A DNA stretch of 64,000 nt. Origin: a virus (lineage: Duplodnaviria; Heunggongvirae; Uroviricota; Caudoviricetes). Below are positions 1 to 30,290 of this stretch, piece by piece; position 1 is the stretch's first letter, and the number at the start of each line of letters is the position of its first letter. The position numbers and the translations under genes were made by a program. The DNA is taken from positions 1 through 64,000 of the IMG/VR virus record IMGVR_UViG_2579778606_000002; one strand, 5' to 3'. The notes below the pieces were generated by a model. The model had not been told where the DNA came from, searched no databases, and worked only from the letters and a program-made list of their open reading frames with translations.

Positions 1-699
1 GTTGCTTATATTTTCAAACATCCGGCCGGGAAATTATTCTGGGCTTTAACGGATGAAAGCAATAAAGAGCAAGCGGACGTTATTCCTGTTTATGCTGCCG
101 CGCCTGCGTCGGTTGTGCCGGATAATGCATCAGAGCCTCTTGCTTATGCTTACAAAGAGCTTACGCCTGAGATTATGCGCAACCATTTAGCTGTATTCGA
201 GCGATATGGAATAGCCCCAAACGATAGCTCTACCACAATTCAGGCACTGCGAATCGCGCTGGATGGCATAGAGCGGAGCGACGCCATGCTTCATGGTGCT
301 GAACCTGTAAGCCAAACTTACAAGTTGCCAATTAATACACCTTGCCAAGATGCGCCAGCCCATATCTGGCTGCAAACAGCTGGAGTATGGCCAGAAGATG
401 GCGAGTTAAGCGAATTAACGTGGTGCAGCCACAATCAGCACCATGATGACACACTATATGTTCGAGCTGACCTTGTGAATGGCAACTATCCGGTAACTCC
501 GGATGGTTGGATAAGCTGTAGTGAGCGAATGCCGGATAATAATCACGACGTACTTTTCTTCGATGTGTGGGGTTATATCAGGATTGGCTGGTTCAGTGCG
601 GACGACTGGTCGTGGTTTACGTCGGATGATGGGTGCTGCATGGAGGTGACCCACTGGATGCCGCTACCAGAACCGCCTCAGGAGGTTAACCGTGGCTAA
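1..699 (+). CDS. DUF551-domain phage protein, 5' partial (reading frame is open from window position 1; first Met at 115)
   Basis: Frame 1 has no stop from nt 1 to 699; C-terminal WISCSERMPD...WMPLPEPP resembles DUF551 domain common in enterobacterial prophages. Confidence 0.55.
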   Translation, partial: VAYIFKHPAGKLFWALTDESNKEQADVIPVYAAAPASVVPDNASEPLAYAYKELTPEIMRNHLAVFERYGIAPNDSSTTIQALRIALDGIERSDAMLHGAEPVSQTYKLPINTPCQDAPAHIWLQTAGVWPEDGELSELTWCSHNQHHDDTLYVRADLVNGNYPVTPDGWISCSERMPDNNHDVLFFDVWGYIRIGWFSADDWSWFTSDDGCCMEVTHWMPLPEPPQEVNRG

Positions 700-2150: not shown

Positions 2151-2944
2151 CTAAAATCACTAAATTTCGCATATCAGAGATTATTGCACGCATCGAAATG
2201 TATGGATACGGCGCTGGATACACGGCAGATGAGGTATTGGAGCTTGCCCAAATAGCGTTAGCAACCTGCAAAGACGGTGAGAGTATAAAGCTGATTGACT
2301 TGTTGGTGCTGGAGCTGCCAAAGCGTGGAGGGTGGCCTGATGATGTGCTCGATTGTCGCATGGTTAGAGAGGACTGCTGTGAACCATCATATGGGTTCTT
2401 TGCTTTTGGCTCTGATCCAGCGAAAAGCCCGCGTGGGCGCAATTTTTGCCTTGAGGTCAGGCTTCCGATAAGTAACCTTGATCGCGAGGAATACACGGAA
2501 ATAATTTCGCGCAAACAATACGAAGAGGCTCTTGAAGCATCCAATAAGTTAAATTTTGAGCAATGGCTGGGACAACAACGCGAAAAAATCGACCTGGACT
2601 GCGGTTGTGTGTCTACTGAAACATTCATGCACTGGCTGCGGGTAGCCTATGAATCTGGCAACCGTCTGGATACTCATCCACAAGAGGTGCCGAAGCCAAG
2701 AGTAAGCACAACTCTGGAAAGGAGCTATCTTGAAACTGCATTAAAGATTAAGGCAGGCCATACGCTAGGCGTCATTGATGCCATGTTGGTTCATGAAATG
2801 GCGAAGGCTTTACTACCAGAAATTCCCGCGAATACGCCTACGCAAGTTCTGGCGCTAATGAACAAACACAATCTGCCCAGGGAAGCATTCTGGTGCTTTG
2901 ACCATGAACAGTGGAGATACTCATGCTATGAATGCCGGTATTAA
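2147..2944 (+). CDS. hypothetical phage protein, 265 aa
   Basis: ATG at 2147 with AAGGA upstream; ATGA overlap with preceding gene. Confidence 0.55.
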   Translation: MTKITKFRISEIIARIEMYGYGAGYTADEVLELAQIALATCKDGESIKLIDLLVLELPKRGGWPDDVLDCRMVREDCCEPSYGFFAFGSDPAKSPRGRNFCLEVRLPISNLDREEYTEIISRKQYEEALEASNKLNFEQWLGQQREKIDLDCGCVSTETFMHWLRVAYESGNRLDTHPQEVPKPRVSTTLERSYLETALKIKAGHTLGVIDAMLVHEMAKALLPEIPANTPTQVLALMNKHNLPREAFWCFDHEQWRYSCYECRY

Positions 2945-3000
2945 TGATGACTGGTGAGCTTGTAGTTCTGGCTACCCGCAGCCCCCCTGGTTACTACAAA

Positions 3001-15117: not shown

Positions 15118-15544
15118 GATTACTGTTAATTACGCTTACGCTTTTTGCCAGAACCGCGTAAGGCTTTTGCCGCTTGCTCTACCCCGTATGCAACCACCAG
15201 CAGAAACAATAATGTCCACTCCGGGTTTTTATCGGCAAACGCCCAAAAATCCATCACTTGCAGCCACCTTTTAAGACAAACGCCATTGCTGTTAGGTTGC
15301 GGTGCCGGGTGCCTCCCGGTGACGTTAACCAGTTAACAATTAACGCCGGATCACTTATGGATTCTCGTTACGCCAGTAAAAAGACCACCTTTACTGTTTT
15401 AACTGTTCCGCGTGCGCTTAGCCGCATTCACCGCAATGGTAAGAGCATTTGGCTGACTGGGCGGCGATGACGCCTGTACGCATTTGGTGATCCGGTTCTG
15501 CTTCCGGCATTCGCTTAATTAGCCAAATACTCTTAACGTTGCGA

Positions 15545-15631
15545 TGGCGGAGAGTAATGGAATCGAACCATCATCGCTTGGGCGACGGGACGGTTTTCAA
15601 GACCGCTTGAGCACCATGCTCCCTACTCTCC
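15545..15631 (-). tRNA. class II tRNA, probable tRNA-Ser (anticodon UGA); D-arm atypical
   Basis: 7-bp acceptor GGAGAGT/ACTCTCC, discriminator G, CCA, anticodon loop CTTGAAA, long variable arm, T-loop TTCGATT. Confidence 0.45.
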
Positions 15632-15872
15632 AGTGATTGTGGTGGTCGGTGCTGATCTCCGACTGCGCCTCTTTTTTTCATAGCCCATAAGGCCGGTCAG
15701 TGCGCTTGATGACTGAGGCATCGATATTTACTACGCCGCCTCGTTGCCATAGGGCGGACTTGCGCGCCAGCAACGCGCATTCACCACAACGGTAAGGGTA
15801 CTTCGTAGGGATTCGAACCCTCTGCCAAGCACGGCGATCTCCGACGTCGCAAAATACCCTTACCTGTTGTGT

Positions 15873-16044: not shown

Positions 16045-16121
16045 TGGCGATGGTGGGTGGATTCGAACCACCGACCGACAGCTTAGAAGGCTGCTGCTCT
16101 ATCCTACTGAGCTACACCATC
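16045..16121 (-). tRNA. tRNA-Arg (anticodon UCU, reads AGA)
   Basis: GATGGTGTAGCTCAGTAGGATAGAGCAGCAGCCTTCTAAGCTGTCGGTCGGTGGTTCGAATCCACCCACCATCGCCA; canonical cloverleaf. Confidence 0.75.
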
Positions 16122-16582
16122 ACTTGCCGGGTACGTCTCCGGCGAGGGCTTCCACCTCCGTATGCTTTTCGGCGCACCGCGCCCTGGCTGCAATTCGGTA
16201 ACAGGGGATACACAACCCTGGCTTCCAGCGTGATTAGCGCCTTCAGCATGACGGGATATACCCGTTACAAGACATTATTCCAGAAAGCCATTAACCAATG
16301 GCTGTTACGCGGGAAGGACGTAACAGGTAAGGGCGCTGACCAGAAAGACCTGACCCTTCTCATTCATCTGGTTAATCACACCAGCGCCCTTGCCTGTTAT
16401 GCCTCCCCGTTCCCTAATACACAGACGGGGACACTCTGCGGTCGATTTTTTGACGGGGGACGACTCATACCCCGTGGCGTCAGGCTTCTTAGGCCGCTAC
16501 CATCATCAGATCATCGTTTGCATTTACTTTAATGGTCGGGTTCTAAACCGCCGCAAAGTCGCTAACCATGACGAAAACACTG

Positions 16583-16606
16583 AAAAAACACCCACCCGAA
16601 GGTGGG
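16583..16606 (-). terminator. rho-independent terminator (minus strand): CCCACC-TTCG-GGTGGG then TGTTTTTT
   Basis: Stem-loop with tetraloop followed by T-tract when read on minus strand. Confidence 0.5.
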
Positions 16607-17305
16607 CAAATATCCCACTCGCGGTATTGCCACTTAGGCGTATGGTCAACCTGGCAACTCGGTGTCCTCAACGGGGAAGGAATAACCCCGCCATACTTAC
16701 CGCCGCGCCTGTCGCGGTTATCGCTACGTATCAACATAAAAGCCGACTGCCTGAGCAAGATTCACTTTCAAAGGCCCGCAGAAAGGAATCCATAGTCGGC
16801 TTTTATCTTGAAGCGGCTCTCTCTCCGCCCGTCACCGTCCTATCCCGGTTGTCGCGTTTGCCACGCCAGCCGTAACGAGGTTTAAAGTCTTTTCACGTTT
16901 TCATCACTCGACTGCCGTCTATGGCTGTTCGTTGCAGCGGGGGTGCCTCCCCCTGGGGATATCCCCGGCCTTACCCCCATTCTTTCAAAACACAATGCAA
17001 GGCCACATCCGCATAGGTGCATTACCGCAACGTTAAGGAGACTCAGAGTCAGCAAAATAAGAGGAAAACCCAACTCTGCGCCTCCTTAACGTTGAGGATG
17101 TGCACTGATGATGACCCGATGCAGCCTGGCCCACTTAACATACTCACTGCCAGATCATCATCAATGAACACCTTAAAAAGACCTTCCGTGGCTCAAGTCA
17201 CTGTCGTTTACTCCGTAAAATGCTCTCGCTGAAACCACTTTACGCACTAAACCTGCCGGGCATGTATTTGCACGGTGCCGGAGCTTTCCCTTACCTTAAA
17301 ATTTA

Positions 17306-17316
17306 CTTTCTAACAC
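17306..17316 (-). promoter_or_regulatory. operator-like motif (CTTTCTAACAC on plus strand)
   Basis: Partial copy of dispersed motif in ORF-poor region. Confidence 0.3.
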
Positions 17317-17434
17317 TTAAGTTTGTTTGATGCTGGTGGGGGAAGACAATGAAGTGACTATCAAACCCGCAAGCGACATGGGAAGCTCCCCACCAGCACG
17401 AAAAATTCTATGTTAAGTTAATTCCATAATCAAC

Positions 17435-17464
17435 ATGTTAGAAAGATAATTTTAGTTTTCTAAC
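17435..17464. promoter_or_regulatory. inverted pair of operator-like motifs TGTTAGAAAG-N10-TTTTCTAACA
   Basis: Two half copies in opposite orientation at the 3' end of gene 17468..18676. Confidence 0.4.
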
Positions 17465-17467
17465 ACA

Positions 17468-18676
17468 TTATTTCCCGTAAAGATTTTCAACTCCACCGTT
17501 CTTCTTATCCCACTCGTTCGCCCATACCCGGCAAGCATCAATTATTTCCTGACGTCGATCGCCCTGCATGAACGGAATGCTTTCATGAAAGCTGCTTGGA
17601 ATGCAGGCCACACTGAACACTGTATCAAACTCAGTCTGCTTGATTGCCTCCAACGTCTCTGGACGCATTTTCAATTCGTCGATCGGTGCATCCTTAGAGT
17701 CCATAATCCGGCGATGTAAGCGTGGAAAATCCGTTTCAAGGTACGCCATAATTTTATCTGCCAGACATTCGTCTATGTCGGTATTCCAGTCAGTTTCGAA
17801 GCCAGGAATTCGGTAGTAAAGCGGCGCTCCCCATACTGACGGGATCACATCCATCGTCAGCAGGCGGCTGGTTCTGATTTGCTGATGGTAATTTGCCGTC
17901 AGCAACGCTTCGCCACGTTGCCCAGTCTCCGCGACCAGACCATGCGGAAACTCATGGATATAGGCAATAGCTTCTCTTCCGTCATACATTAGCGGGAATG
18001 TCTCTGGCCTTTGCCCCATGCCACAGGCGCGATTCAGATCATGACCAAGCTCTGAGCACTCTCGTTTCAATGTTTCAATAATGCTCTGCGCCGCTGCTAA
18101 CTTTTTACGCAGTGTGACGAGTTCGCCTTGATACTCAACGCATTGCTGATTTAGCTTGGTTAAACGCTCTTTTAGTTCCCGACGCTCTCTTTTCAGCGTG
18201 CGGTTATCTTTCTCCGCAACATCCAGTCGTTTTGTCAGGCTTGGCGGATAGTCTTTTTTGTAACGACTCAAATCGACTTCAGCAGATTTGCGCAGTGTAT
18301 TTGCCTGCTCAAGACGCGCCTCCAGATTGCCGATCTCATTACGCATATTCGCGGCAAATTGATTAACAGCATCCCCCAGGCTTTCAACTGTCGCTGATAC
18401 ACCAGTGACTTGAGAAAAACGGATCAAGCCATCATTAACGGCTTGCTGATATTCCTCAAACTGATCCACCAGCTTATTGTAATCAACTGCCCCATCATCA
18501 AGGAGCTGGTTGATTTCCGCCACCAGGTTATCTGTAGTGGCAATGACGCTCTCATGCAGTCGCTTTGACAGGTCATCGCCCGGATTTCGTTTCTGTATAA
18601 GCGCGATTTGTGTCCGCAGCGTTTCAATTGCGGTTGAGATGATCTCCAGGCTTGATGATTCTACTTGCTGACTCAT
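17468..18676 (-). CDS. hypothetical protein, N-terminal coiled coil (approx residues 100-220) plus C-terminal globular domain
   Basis: 402-aa ORF with heptad-rich region (…LEARLEQANTLRKSAEVDLSRYKK…LKRERRELKERLTKLNQQ…); own operator-like motif upstream. Confidence 0.55.
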   Translation of the reverse strand: MSQQVESSSLEIISTAIETLRTQIALIQKRNPGDDLSKRLHESVIATTDNLVAEINQLLDDGAVDYNKLVDQFEEYQQAVNDGLIRFSQVTGVSATVESLGDAVNQFAANMRNEIGNLEARLEQANTLRKSAEVDLSRYKKDYPPSLTKRLDVAEKDNRTLKRERRELKERLTKLNQQCVEYQGELVTLRKKLAAAQSIIETLKRECSELGHDLNRACGMGQRPETFPLMYDGREAIAYIHEFPHGLVAETGQRGEALLTANYHQQIRTSRLLTMDVIPSVWGAPLYYRIPGFETDWNTDIDECLADKIMAYLETDFPRLHRRIMDSKDAPIDELKMRPETLEAIKQTEFDTVFSVACIPSSFHESIPFMQGDRRQEIIDACRVWANEWDKKNGGVENLYGK

Positions 18677-29960: not shown

Positions 29961-30019
29961 AGTTACGGCCTCACTAACAGGTTTAACAACCTGCTACCCG
30001 CTGCTAAACAGGTGGCAGG

Positions 30020-30110
30020 ACGTGACGGGGTTAGCAGACTGGCGTTAGTGAAACCAGCAGGCCGAAGCCTCCCCATCACGCCCCACCATAATTTGGGCGT
30101 AACGCGGTTT
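30020..30110 (-). ncRNA. c4: candidate C4-like antisense RNA (contains a'/b' elements CACTAAC … CTGCTAAC complementary to two flanking target pairs)
   Basis: Minus-strand RNA would carry CACTAAC and CTGCTAAC (30030..30050) complementary to GTTAGTG / GTTTAGCAG copies at 30156..30183 and 29972..30013 (the latter just upstream of icd RBS); boundaries approximate. Confidence 0.4.
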
Positions 30111-30290
30111 TACGGACACAAAAATACCGCAATATCGGATATCTGCGGTTGTCCGCACTAACATTCAGGCTGCTAAACCCGGTCGCAGAATTTGCTACGA
30201 CGGCATGAATATAAGCCTGAACATTAGAAAGATCAACAGAATTTTTATCAGATGCTGTTTTTTAGTGACGATATAAATCATACATTCTTG

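Follow-up and report, generated by a model that had tools for sequence, protein, structure and literature searches.

The region at 16122-17467 is a minus-strand non-coding leader of a repressor-controlled early operon, running into tRNA genes. Directly downstream of a terminator, this leader carries a discrete RNA module (16404-16578, minus strand) that, judged from its sequence, is best explained as a phage RNA derived from tmRNA. One arm of the module is complementary to the template region of the host tmRNA, and we infer that the RNA docks there and substitutes, or at least blocks, the tag template. The best explanation of the whole, namely a leader with a tmRNA-derived RNA that would dock on host tmRNA so that a phage tag replaces the host tag, is put forward tentatively, at somewhat less than even chances.

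The window, meaning the whole stretch of 64,000 nucleotides that was analysed, belongs to a phage-plasmid of the P1/D6 type. The features of the leader are collected in Table 1, in order of transcription.

Table 1. Features of the leader and of the RNA module, with positions in the window
Feature	Position	Strand	Remarks
Operator-like motif GTGTTAGAAA, three copies	17307-17316; 17435-17444; 17457-17466	minus; plus; minus	Flank the promoter-like site
Promoter-like site TTGATT-17-TAGAAT	17405..17433 (17433->17405)	minus	Predicted leader start ~17397; sequence kept in D6
D6-lineage-specific structured leader	16727..17400	minus	Several long hairpins; no conserved ORF
Element E	16627..16709	minus	Homologue of the sequence directly 5' of dicF in lambdoid prophages
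Intrinsic-terminator-like hairpin GCCCACC-UUCG-GGUGGGU plus U run	16583..16607	minus	Adjoins the module directly
Antisense arm GUUUUCGUC..GCGAC-UUUGCGG..UUUAG..CCGACC	16534..16578 (45 nt)	minus	Complementary to host tmRNA nt 57-104
12-nt single-stranded linker AUUAAAGUAAAU	16522..16533	minus	U and A at -5/-4 from the resume codon
Tag template GCA AAC GAU GAU CUG AUG AUG GUA GCG GCC UAA (ANDDLMMVAA*)	16489..16521	minus	No start codon
Helix-5-like hairpin	16475..16502	minus	Stop codon in the loop
First H-type pseudoknot CGGGG..GUCG..CCCCG....CGAC	16441..16474	minus	Aligns to PK2 of the beta_tmRNA model
Second H-type pseudoknot GCAGA..UCCCCG..UCUGU....CGGGGA	16404..16440	minus	From helices and alignment reading
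Long hairpin, conserved stem ACAGGCAAGGGCGCUG/CAGCGCCCUUACCUGU	16310..16409	minus	Type that flanks RNA modules in other phages
3' block of several hairpins	16122..16309	minus	Nearly invariant in P1, D6 and the window
tRNA-Arg(UCU)	16045..16121	minus	First gene of the same-strand tRNA island

A non-coding leader ahead of the tRNA genes

Positions 16122-16726 are homologous to the DNA with which the ban operon of P1 begins, with ~87% identity over the aligned stretch. The best-conserved part is a block of 467 nt (16122-16588) that lies downstream of the terminator on the transcribed strand and shares ~90% identity with P1. The P1 homologue forms the 5' part of the ban operon, which is under C1 control and is annotated in the order Pban/Op72, 'dicF-like region', tRNAs, tciABC, ban; the D6 record has no annotation at the homologous site. 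Both by homology and by its place between a repressor-controlled promoter and tRNA genes, 16122-16726 corresponds to the P1 ban leader, from which the window differs by ~740 extra nucleotides of D6-type leader and by another operator motif.

Our analysis confirmed the operator-like motifs that the earlier note had placed at 17306-17464. The window contains 16 copies of GTGTTAGAAA where 3.6 are expected, a count reached by none of 100 shuffles, and the cluster also contains a 19-nt inverted repeat with units 120 bp apart. The D6-type part of the leader gave a folding z-score of -4.7, and its hairpins at 17333-17397 and 17023-17100 show compensatory changes relative to D6; no relatives of the ~740 nt were found beyond D6 and D6-like plasmids and elements. 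Element E is present in P1, is missing from D6 and occurs in 4416 of 5426 E. coli genomes; its hairpin reads CGGGG/CCCCG in the window and CUGGG/CCCAG in P1. The similarity to dicF loci covers ~97 nt 5' of dicF and excludes DicF itself, which in the lambdoid loci scores 76.7 bits immediately 3' of the shared element. The identity with DicF suggested by the 'dicF-like' label of P1 was rejected, as a search with RF00039 gave no match in P1, in D6 or, even at E<=10, in the window. At the other end, the 3' block stops at the 5' end of the tRNA-Arg gene, and within it the hairpin at 16280-16300 has kept its structure, not its sequence, in P1.

We found no conserved ORF in 16122-17467, in agreement with the earlier view that the region holds no convincing protein-coding ORF. 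Between 16150 and 17300, the ORFs of at least 60 aa are one of 161 aa and one of 180 aa, both on the plus strand, and four of 63-75 aa; the 180-aa ORF overlaps three tRNA genes, and none of the six has a Pfam family. A protein gene, whether small and unrecognised or decayed, is very improbable here. The automatic annotation of some P1-like records does call 'hypothetical proteins' in the region, and a single PHROG family, phrog_27020, matches a plus-strand ORF (~16248-16451). However, that ORF is absent from P1 and has no Pfam family, the curated P1 record has no CDS at the homologous site, and the window differs from D6 by numerous indels, and likewise from P1-type relatives by indels, whose lengths are not multiples of three.

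The earlier note had left three options for the region: a structured non-coding RNA, a long 3' UTR or a decayed gene. The first of these is right. A 3' UTR does not fit, because the pmgS-like gene upstream is followed, right after its stop codon, by the operator/promoter cluster and because the P1 homologue is the 5' part of the ban operon; the decayed gene falls with the lack of a conserved frame, the non-triplet indels and the lack of any real protein family. The note had also proposed two comparisons. Alignment with relatives revealed compensatory changes, in the terminator relative to P1 and D6 and in leader hairpins relative to D6, and no conserved frame. A covariance-model scan of 16122-17467 returned no Rfam family at the gathering threshold, and its tmRNA-type matches stayed below it. 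The description of the region as GC-rich holds only mildly (GC 0.51-0.56, compared with 0.42-0.49 in the flanking genes).

The clean minus-strand terminator reported at 16583-16606 was recovered as a stem of eight pairs (16608->16589), five of them G-C, with a UUCG loop followed by UUUUUU on the transcribed strand. The hairpin is kept in P1 and D6 with compensatory changes. Terminator-like sites as such are not in excess, with seven in a 4.5-kb scan compared with 4.4 +/- 1.9 by chance. Contrary to the earlier description, the terminator does not end the region; it lies in the middle of it. The claim that a transcript ends there can be at best half correct, as the module and the tRNA genes lie downstream on the same strand without a promoter of their own, and must therefore be reached by read-through unless the hairpin is a processing boundary. 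The same arrangement in P1-type elements, a strong terminator right upstream and no promoter after it, makes the expression level of the module uncertain.

An RNA module with a tmRNA-like tag frame

The earlier reading of the region mentioned neither a tmRNA-type tag frame nor pseudoknots nor complementarity to the host tmRNA. Across 126 loci we identified 16 tag variants, all of 10 codons and closed by UAA or UAG. Codons 1 (GCA) and 2 (AAC) were fixed by the search pattern. Codon 10 encodes Ala in 33 of 34 distinct sequences, and most tags end in AA or VA. No start codon lies in frame, and eight codons upstream the frame is closed by an invariant UAG. UAAAU followed directly by GCA AAC GA is invariant in 31 aligned copies, providing a non-AUG resume codon in a U85/A86-type context according to the rule established for tmRNA (PMC2481249). 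From the 3' blocks of the arm to the stop codon, no copy has an indel, and the linker is 12 nt long.

Covariation was assessed in 31 distinct module copies. In helix 5 and the two pseudoknots, 90.9% of the cells were paired, compared with 79.8% in shuffles and 29-48% with slid partners, and changes on both sides occurred in 18 of 26 pairs, which none of 500 shuffles reached. The stop codon lies in the loop of helix 5 and is followed by pseudoknots, as in tmRNA. Support for translation of the tag is modest; several of its codons lie within helix 5, and RNA structure alone could therefore explain part of the codon conservation. No PK1 was found upstream of the resume codon, where the 57 nt contain no covarying helix and three variable nucleotides are uncompensated. 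A PK1-like fold 5' of the tag was considered and rejected for lack of covariation, RNAalifold pairing only the invariant UUUGC with GCAAA.

With RF04321, whose threshold is 47, the module of the window scored 24.1 bits and the copies of other phages 27-33.5 bits; with beta_tmRNA the score was 17 bits relative to 84, in a match spanning the tag through PK2; no score reached the Rfam gathering threshold of a tmRNA family. Aligned as a whole to E. coli ssrA, the region gave no significant score (25 versus 23.7 +/- 2.9), and only the start of the tag aligned. ARAGORN, which models permuted forms, detected no tmRNA in the 126 loci or in the window, and the entire genome of CS01, which carries the module, contains no tRNA, tmRNA or Rfam family. 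Strict complements of the invariant 5' GUUUUCG, sought by pattern across the loci, never stood at a consistent position; read by eye, GUUUUCG forms the basal strand of a hairpin upstream, not an acceptor stem. Among the flanking hairpins, T-arm-like loops and STnc100-like units, no acceptor/T-arm combination fits tmRNA, and in none of the 126 loci did we find a tRNA-like domain, that is, no acceptor stem with G3-U70, T-arm and 3' CCA.

Copies of the module occur in P1-likes, N4-like and T1-like phages, Ackermannviridae and other enterobacterial phages, as well as in phages used for therapy. It is phage-borne, with six matches among the representative genomes of 185,579 species, and it is kept as a unit across unrelated phage families with unalignable flanks. 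tRNA genes lie just downstream in 73 of the 126 loci, and at many loci there are tRNA-shaped modules with a closing 7-bp stem beside a T-like hairpin. In Akira-type phages, a predicted promoter (TTGACA-17-TAGATT) is placed so that the arm would form the transcript's 5' end. The module carries no annotation in P1, which is among the most thoroughly studied phages, nor in hundreds of plasmids of the P1/D6 type from clinical E. coli and Salmonella. Our literature search found no account of a 'tmRNA-like' phage RNA, of an RNA antisense to tmRNA or of an RNA at this site in P1, and two P1vir RNA-seq studies do not discuss the locus.

Complementarity of the arm to host tmRNA

All 31 copies were predicted to dock on E. 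coli ssrA at nt 55/57-104, with 34-40 bp and -35 to -48 kcal/mol. The target spans the 3' half of PK1, A86, the resume codon and tag codons 1-5; it does not vary in E. coli and Klebsiella, and the Salmonella sequence is 98% identical. This docking was matched by no more than 2 of 300 shuffles in five of the six copies that were tested, the copy of phiEa2809 being weaker (~4% of shuffles). The reverse complement of the arm compared with ssrA nt 67-104 gave z = 5.8-9.2 in three copies and ~4 in two others. Within the 1.28-kb leader, the excess of complementarity to ssrA is found in the arm only, and the invariant columns of the arm are its paired positions, with the variable columns falling in bulges. 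The host codons 3-5 that the arm matches (GAC GAA AAC) are absent from every phage tag, and the arm pairs better with the host tmRNA than with the template of its own module. This is the extended, conserved complementarity to a defined host RNA site expected of an antisense or sponge RNA.

The resume codon of the module lies 12 nt beyond the predicted duplex, which equals the spacing in E. coli tmRNA, where the resume codon follows PK1 by 12 nt and A86 sets the frame (PMC2481249). Both PK1 and the tag sequence of E. coli tmRNA can be replaced (PMC2481249). The copy of Aeromonas phage pAh6-C has kept the tag and the pseudoknots, and its arm matches the tmRNAs obtained over only 11-12 nt, which is not significant. 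Host-matched covariation, examined with 17 natural tmRNA variants from IMG/VR, showed reciprocal preference at one arm position only. The complementarity of the arm could also go back to an inverted duplication of part of tmRNA, as a relic and not a working docking site.

Possible action of the module and related RNAs

On the explanation we favour, the module consists, in this order, of the 45-nt arm, an inverted copy of tmRNA nt 57-104, then the linker, the template, helix 5 and the two pseudoknots. The arm would pair with host tmRNA from the 3' half of PK1 through A86 and the resume codon to the fifth tag codon, masking the host template, and this docking would set the phage resume codon at the host resume codon's normal distance from the tRNA-like domain, with the linker keeping the U-A nucleotides that would set the frame. 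The host would supply the charged tRNA-like domain and SmpB, and the phage would dictate the peptide, so that ribosomes rescued by host alanyl-tmRNA/SmpB would add (A)ANDDLMMVAA and not (A)ANDENYALAA. The terminator hairpin would mark the module's upstream boundary, as a site of partial termination or processing. Extended to P1 and many virulent and temperate enterobacterial phages, this would be a class of phage RNA that hijacks ribosome rescue by pairing to tmRNA and swapping in a phage template, a chimeric, trans-assembled two-piece tmRNA; we give such a class somewhat less than even chances.

The complementarity of the arm supports equally an antisense inhibitor or decoy that would block the resume codon or trigger cleavage of the duplex, so that tagging or trans-translation is shut down while the phage grows. 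In that case the tag frame, helix 5 and the pseudoknots would go untranslated and be kept for stability or for binding of tmRNA partners such as S1, SmpB or RNase R. A precedent exists in the gene of mycobacteriophage DS6A that consists of a tRNA-like domain only and inhibits tmRNA (PMC4131195; PMC11915505). We consider inhibition alone rather unlikely, although a serious contender, as it leaves unexplained the invariant unpaired resume context UAAAU-GCAAACGA, the fixed 12-nt linker, and the 10-codon frame with its Ala end and its stop in the helix-5 loop across very different tags. An ordinary structured operon leader, serving attenuation, processing or punctuation of a tRNA/ban-type transcript and containing the tmRNA-like stretch as an inert recombination relic, would suit the position between promoter and tRNAs, the terminator within the leader, which is typical of attenuators, and the similar long hairpins that flank tRNAs and other modules in other phages. 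It is nevertheless improbable, given that the module is kept as a unit in unrelated families, in some without tRNAs or with its own promoter, that its helices show the compensatory changes described above, and that the arm still matches host tmRNA while the phage tag has diverged.

More doubtful still is a complete but unconventional phage tmRNA, two-piece or permuted, that takes its acceptor from a neighbouring tRNA-shaped module such as an STnc100-like unit or a long hairpin with a T-arm-like loop. The best Rfam similarity is indeed to permuted and beta-proteobacterial tmRNAs, and both the tRNA-shaped modules at many loci and the downstream tRNA genes count in its favour. However, ARAGORN finds none even with permuted forms included, CS01 carries the module with no tRNA-like gene genome-wide, the candidate stems read by eye lack G3-U70 and an encoded CCA, GUUUUCG has no consistent strict complement, and the complementarity to host tmRNA would be left unexplained.

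Compared with bacterial tmRNA (SsrA; RF00023, permuted RF04321/RF01850), the module shares a GCA resume codon without a start codon, U-A at -5/-4, tags of the AND... type, a stop in the helix 5 loop and H-type pseudoknots after the tag. It lacks the acceptor stem, T-arm, CCA and PK1, its Rfam scores are sub-threshold, and its 45-nt arm, the reverse complement of tmRNA nt 57-104, occurs in no tmRNA. The two-piece tmRNAs of alpha- and beta-proteobacteria and cyanobacteria likewise have the template on a chain apart from part of the tRNA-like domain, joined by base pairing. However, both of their pieces come from one permuted gene and pair via the acceptor and P2 helices, whereas the proposed partner of the module is the host's intact tmRNA, paired at the PK1/template region. 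Like the prophage anti-sRNAs or sponges AgvB and AsxR of E. coli and the C4 antisense RNA of P1, the module would be a phage RNA acting by RNA pairing; it differs from them in its predicted target, tmRNA, in a duplex of ~40 bp and in an added, putatively translatable template. Phage-borne pieces of trans-translation RNA are also represented by the tmRNA genes of the mycobacteriophage Bxz1 group and Bacillus phage G and by the DS6A gene. DS6A is evidence that an incomplete tmRNA can interfere with the host's own (PMC4131195). For enterobacterial phages, no tmRNA is listed in a 2012 RefSeq survey (PMC4131195), later phage lists being outside this scope. The tmRNAs of the Bxz1 group and phage G are complete and that of DS6A is the tRNA-like half, whereas the module corresponds to the opposite half, template and pseudoknots, with an antisense arm added.

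Trans-translation is the main bacterial pathway of ribosome rescue and protein quality control, and it affects the growth of some phages. To our knowledge, phages were previously known to carry complete tmRNA genes or, in one case, the tRNA-like half only. A template-half RNA with an arm that matches the template region of host tmRNA points to a new viral takeover of a host RNA machine, in which the degradation tag could be silenced or exchanged for one of the phage's own. The module also accounts for a region of P1 labelled only 'dicF-like', and it shows that phage 'tRNA islands' hold further RNA genes missed by tRNA and tmRNA finders.

Setting of the non-coding stretch

The window belongs to the D6 lineage of P1-type phage-plasmids. 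Positions 16122-17467 are 98.7% identical to the E. coli plasmid NZ_CP104667 and 88.5% identical to phage D6 across 91% of the query length, and the query's first 605 nt (16122-16726) share ~87% identity with P1, P7, SJ46, RCS47, and ~500 P1-like plasmids. In the curated P1 record, the homologue sits between the C1-controlled promoter Pban/operator Op72 and tRNA-Asn, which places it at the 5' end of the operon, which runs on through the tRNAs and tciABC to ban. Its sole annotation there is "dicF-like region," and the homologous stretch of the D6 record has no annotated feature.

Features of the region and its surroundings (window coordinates), and predicted contacts of the arm, the 5' part of the module, with host tmRNA
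Feature	Coordinates	Strand	Remark
C4 antisense RNA and a1/b1 target	30008-30214	minus	70 and 53.9 bits
pmgS-like gene	17468-18676	minus	upstream of the region
Promoter-like site	17433->17405	minus	flanked by three copies of GTGTTAGAAA
Leader part (a)	17400->16727	minus	D6-type elements only
Element E	16709->16627	minus	present in P1, missing from D6
Terminator-like hairpin	16607->16583	minus	conserved in P1 and D6
Block (d)	16588->16122	minus	467 nt, almost invariant among P1, D6, and window
Module	16404-16578	minus	arm, linker, tag template, helix 5, two pseudoknots
ORF matching phrog_27020	16248-16451	plus	overlaps long hairpin
Five tRNA genes	from 16121 downwards	minus	downstream of the region
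tRNA-like hairpin	15775-15872	minus	between tRNA-Ser and tRNA-Thr
Second tRNA-shaped unit	about 15632-15775		
tRNA-Ser(UGA)	15548-15632	minus	long variable arm
STnc100-like unit	15241-15456	minus	between tRNA-Met and tRNA-Ser
Arm block GUUUUCGUC	host tmRNA nt 96-104		tag codons 3-5, GAC GAA AAC
Arm block GCGAC(U)	host tmRNA nt 86-91		A86, -1 triplet, first two resume-codon bases
Arm block UUUGCG(G)	host tmRNA nt 75-80		3' strand of PK1
Arm block UUUUUAGA	host tmRNA nt 65-73		PK1
Arm block C.GACC	host tmRNA nt 57-62		PK1

An earlier note had described 16150-17300 as ORF-poor, GC-rich, and ending in a minus-strand terminator, and had proposed an alignment with relatives and a covariance-model scan. 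We found no conserved ORF in the region, in agreement with that description, and the D6 and P1 comparison shows numerous indels of lengths not divisible by three. The GC content is raised, yet only mildly. The terminator-like hairpin is real (stem 16608->16589, then a U run) and is kept in P1 and D6 with compensatory changes, but it sits mid-way along the non-coding stretch and does not end it. The operator-like motif GTGTTAGAAA is dispersed over the window (16 copies versus 3.6 expected), a pattern that would be expected for operators of a P1-type immunity repressor. C4 antisense RNA and its target mark the P1-type immI immunity region, a known feature. The plus-strand ORF matched by phrog_27020, a 68-aa PHROG family, is missing from P1; the family probably represents spurious ORF calls on this conserved RNA region.

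The D6-type leader folds far better than its shuffles (z = -4.7), and a comparison with D6 shows compensatory changes in its hairpins. Element E is ~92% identical in lambdoid prophages (~97 nt; about 3001-3098 in L003/L004), where it lies immediately 5' of genuine DicF, upstream of dicB, and it is carried by 4416 of 5426 complete E. coli genomes. An Rfam search found no DicF in the window; therefore, the P1 "dicF-like" label denotes the dicF 5' flank. DicF itself is released by RNase E cleavage of a polycistronic RNA, with either a terminator or an RNase III site at its end (PMC5069750). In both lambdoid prophages and P1-type plasmids, element E lies ahead of a terminator hairpin and is unannotated everywhere. 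Within it are a hairpin that shows a compensatory change and what may be a pseudoknot (GUAUGG/CCAUAC inside UUGCCA...UGGCAA); the element could serve in processing or antitermination.

The module, its tag template and its fold

Block (d) folds with z = -2.7. In a sensitive BLAST search, its first 100-190 nt matched unannotated DNA of many unrelated phages, namely Gamaleyavirus Bp4 and relatives (Schitoviridae), Cronobacter phage CS01 (Drexlerviridae), Ackermannviridae of Erwinia, Klebsiella, and Serratia, Akiravirus together with many 45-50-kb siphoviruses of Salmonella and E. coli, and one Aeromonas phage. A pattern scan of IMG/VR for this module recovered at least 120 loci, and the module is nearly restricted to phages: a search of representative genomes from 185,579 species gave 6 hits. 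In the Aeromonas phage pAh6-C (L137, about 530-760), it lies between two protein genes with the direct repeat CTCTATGGTATGTTTA on each side, which may act as a phage promoter or mark the termini of a mobile cassette.

In the module alignment, the invariant UUUAGAAAC.GACCA..AA..UAAAU is followed by GCA AAC GA., and the GCA-initiated frame has 10 codons in every one of the 126 loci among the matches listed, which encode 16 different tags. P1-types and the window share ANDDLMMVAA; further examples are ANDDVVLMAA, ANEEMYLAVA, ANDEQFLAVA, and ANDNEFKVAA. The E. coli tmRNA tag is ANDENYALAA. Codon 10 is Ala in 33 of 34 distinct sequences, with all four Ala codons used, and in these sequences the frame stops at UAA or UAG and no in-frame start codon was found. 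An invariant UAG lies eight codons upstream, and the remaining two frames have stops at varying positions. Such a 10-codon, start-less, Ala-ending frame is the signature of the tag template of bacterial tmRNA. The covariance-model scan did reveal a weak tmRNA similarity, but the permuted tmRNA family RF04321 scored below threshold (24-33.5 bits per locus versus 47); a beta-proteobacterial tmRNA model aligns to the module from the tag through its PK2. Rfam thus agrees weakly with a tmRNA tag template. Conservation of the tag could be partly owed to helix 5.

The fold, a stop-codon-loop hairpin and two H-type pseudoknots, was read from an alignment of 31 distinct copies. It pairs 90.9% of cells compared with 79.8 +/- 0.7% in shuffles, none of 500 of which reached the observed value, and slid partners of the helices were 29-48% paired. 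Both sides change in 18 of 26 pairs, again matched by 0 of 500 shuffles. The last pseudoknot of the P1-type copies is aligned slightly out of register here; taken straight from their sequence, it consists of GCAGA/UCUGU and UCCCCG/CGGGGA. Together, the tag frame and the covarying helices indicate that the module is a conserved, structured, tmRNA-derived RNA.

ARAGORN found no standard or permuted tmRNA among the 126 loci, in which it found 165 tRNAs, and no covarying helix corresponding to PK1 was detected in the near-invariant 57 nt upstream of the resume codon. In CS01, the module occupies a 380-bp gap between two genes, and no tRNA, tmRNA, or Rfam family was found in the complete genome. 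Many loci have tRNA-shaped neighbors, either long hairpins with GGUUCGAnUCC loops or units like Rfam STnc100; because these are absent from CS01 and have no alanine identity pair, we did not take them as the missing tmRNA half.

In the window, the match to STnc100, an uncharacterized Salmonella sRNA (40.9 bits, threshold 47, E about 1e-7), is tRNA-shaped, with a 7-bp closing stem beside a CCGGG-AGGCA-CCCGG hairpin, then A-CC; such units recur beside the module in many phages. The unannotated tRNA-like hairpin, which received no ARAGORN call, has a long stem CACAACAGGUAAGGGUAUU/...ACCCUUACCGUUGUGG around a small hairpin and a canonical T-arm (AGAGGGUUCGAAUCCCU), and a near-identical counterpart occurs in IMG/VR loci such as L014. 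ARAGORN calls tRNA-Ser(UGA) as Ser; it scores 45.7 against 47 for Rfam tRNA-Sec owing to its variable arm. The D6 record (NC_050154, L002) annotates tRNA-Ser, Thr, and Asn at 2295-3000 opposite to Rfam's strand for Thr and Asn, and the ARAGORN strand of the window's Ser and Thr homologues is likewise opposite, which looks like a strand error in the deposited record. Many siphovirus contigs (L011, L013, L017, L025, and others in IMG/VR) carry module, tRNAs, and STnc100-like units in tandem, with spacers forming long hairpins of common stem CACAACAGGUAAGAGCAUU ... AGUGCUCUUUCCGUUGUGG that look like shared punctuation or a processing signal of polycistronic RNA-gene arrays.

Complementarity of the arm to host tmRNA

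RNAduplex placed the arms (16534..16578 in the window) of all 31 copies on one site of E. coli ssrA, the host tmRNA gene, from nt 55/57 to 104 (97 or 101 in two copies). The predicted duplexes comprise 34-40 base pairs (30 for Bp4) at -35 to -48 kcal/mol, compared with about -30 +/- 3 for shuffled arms and -23 to -32 for random genomic segments. For five of six copies examined, no more than 2 of 300 shuffled arms were as good; phiEa2809 was weaker (about 4% of shuffles). The never-varying arm columns are the predicted paired ones, and the two variable patches are bulges. When reverse-complemented, the arm can be aligned to ssrA nt 67-104, at z = 5.8 in the window, 9.2 in CS01, 8.6 in L014, and about 4 in two further copies, which makes it an inverted copy of a tmRNA segment. 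Excess complementarity to ssrA was confined to 16575-16516 in a sliding scan covering all of the 1.28-kb leader. We found no match of the arm to the phage's own template and no phage tag with codons GAC-GAA-AAC, and arm-to-self duplexes were weaker by 11-26 kcal/mol.

Of 5428 E. coli records, 5401 show an identity of 99% or more over ssrA nt 50-110; the value is 100% for Klebsiella prophage-flank records and 98.4% for Salmonella. This invariance of the target fits that of the arm across phage families. The Aeromonas phage copy has the tag ANDDLMLAAA and the same helices, and only 11-12 nt of its arm match the tmRNAs obtained. Among 17 natural tmRNA variants from IMG/VR, whose hosts are unlabeled, one arm position only showed a reciprocal preference: the Erwinia phage arm ACAGACC prefers tmRNAs with GGUUUGCC, and enteric arms prefer GGUUGGCC.

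Proposed tag substitution, possible inhibition and predicted expression

In E. coli tmRNA, PK1 is followed by 12 nt and the resume codon, A86, assisted by U85, is the main determinant of the frame, and the PK1 and tag sequences are replaceable with function kept (PMC2481249). From the anatomy, conservation, complementarity, and spacing observed, we infer production of the module RNA, its pairing with tmRNA, and the consequences of that pairing. Once made, the RNA would pair with host tmRNA, burying host A86, the resume codon, and the first codons in the duplex. The phage RNA would exit the duplex at the PK1 position, from where an A-rich linker of 12 nt, carrying U at -5 and A at -4, would lead to its own GCA resume codon; the duplex would stand in for PK1 and the phage template for that of the host. 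No copy in the alignment has an indel between the 3' blocks of the arm and the stop codon, and the geometry is that expected for such a replacement.

This geometry, with the duplex exit at the PK1 position and the 12-nt linker, leads us to favor tag substitution by a trans-assembled chimeric tmRNA over simple inhibition. A pure antisense RNA that inhibits host tmRNA is a serious rival, but such an RNA would have no evident use for the invariant, unpaired resume context, for the fixed linker, or for an Ala-ending frame of fixed length whose stop lies in helix 5. The module or its arm may also be a relic.

The transcript start varies by phage. Akira-type phages have a near-consensus promoter from which transcription would reach the arm after a few nucleotides. 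In P1-type elements, 4 nt separate the terminator from the arm, which lacks its own promoter; the module, the tRNAs, and, in P1, ban therefore depend on transcription that starts at the repressor-controlled promoter and reads through the terminator. Processing probably takes place in the U-rich stretch that separates hairpin from arm. Two P1vir RNA-seq papers do not treat this locus.

Complete phage tmRNA genes have been described in mycobacteriophages, Bacillus phage G, jumbo phages, and a marine methylophage; mycobacteriophage DS6A has a gene with a tRNA-like domain alone that inhibits tmRNA, and two-piece tmRNAs are products of permuted bacterial genes (PMC4131195, PMC11915505). In full-text literature searches, we found no template-only phage tmRNA fragment, no antisense RNA to tmRNA, and no RNA at the P1 site; subscription journals may hold prior descriptions. 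The region thus holds an ordinary-looking leader and terminator and also an unannotated, widely distributed phage RNA, whose anatomy fits no family described so far and suggests a new means of manipulating trans-translation.
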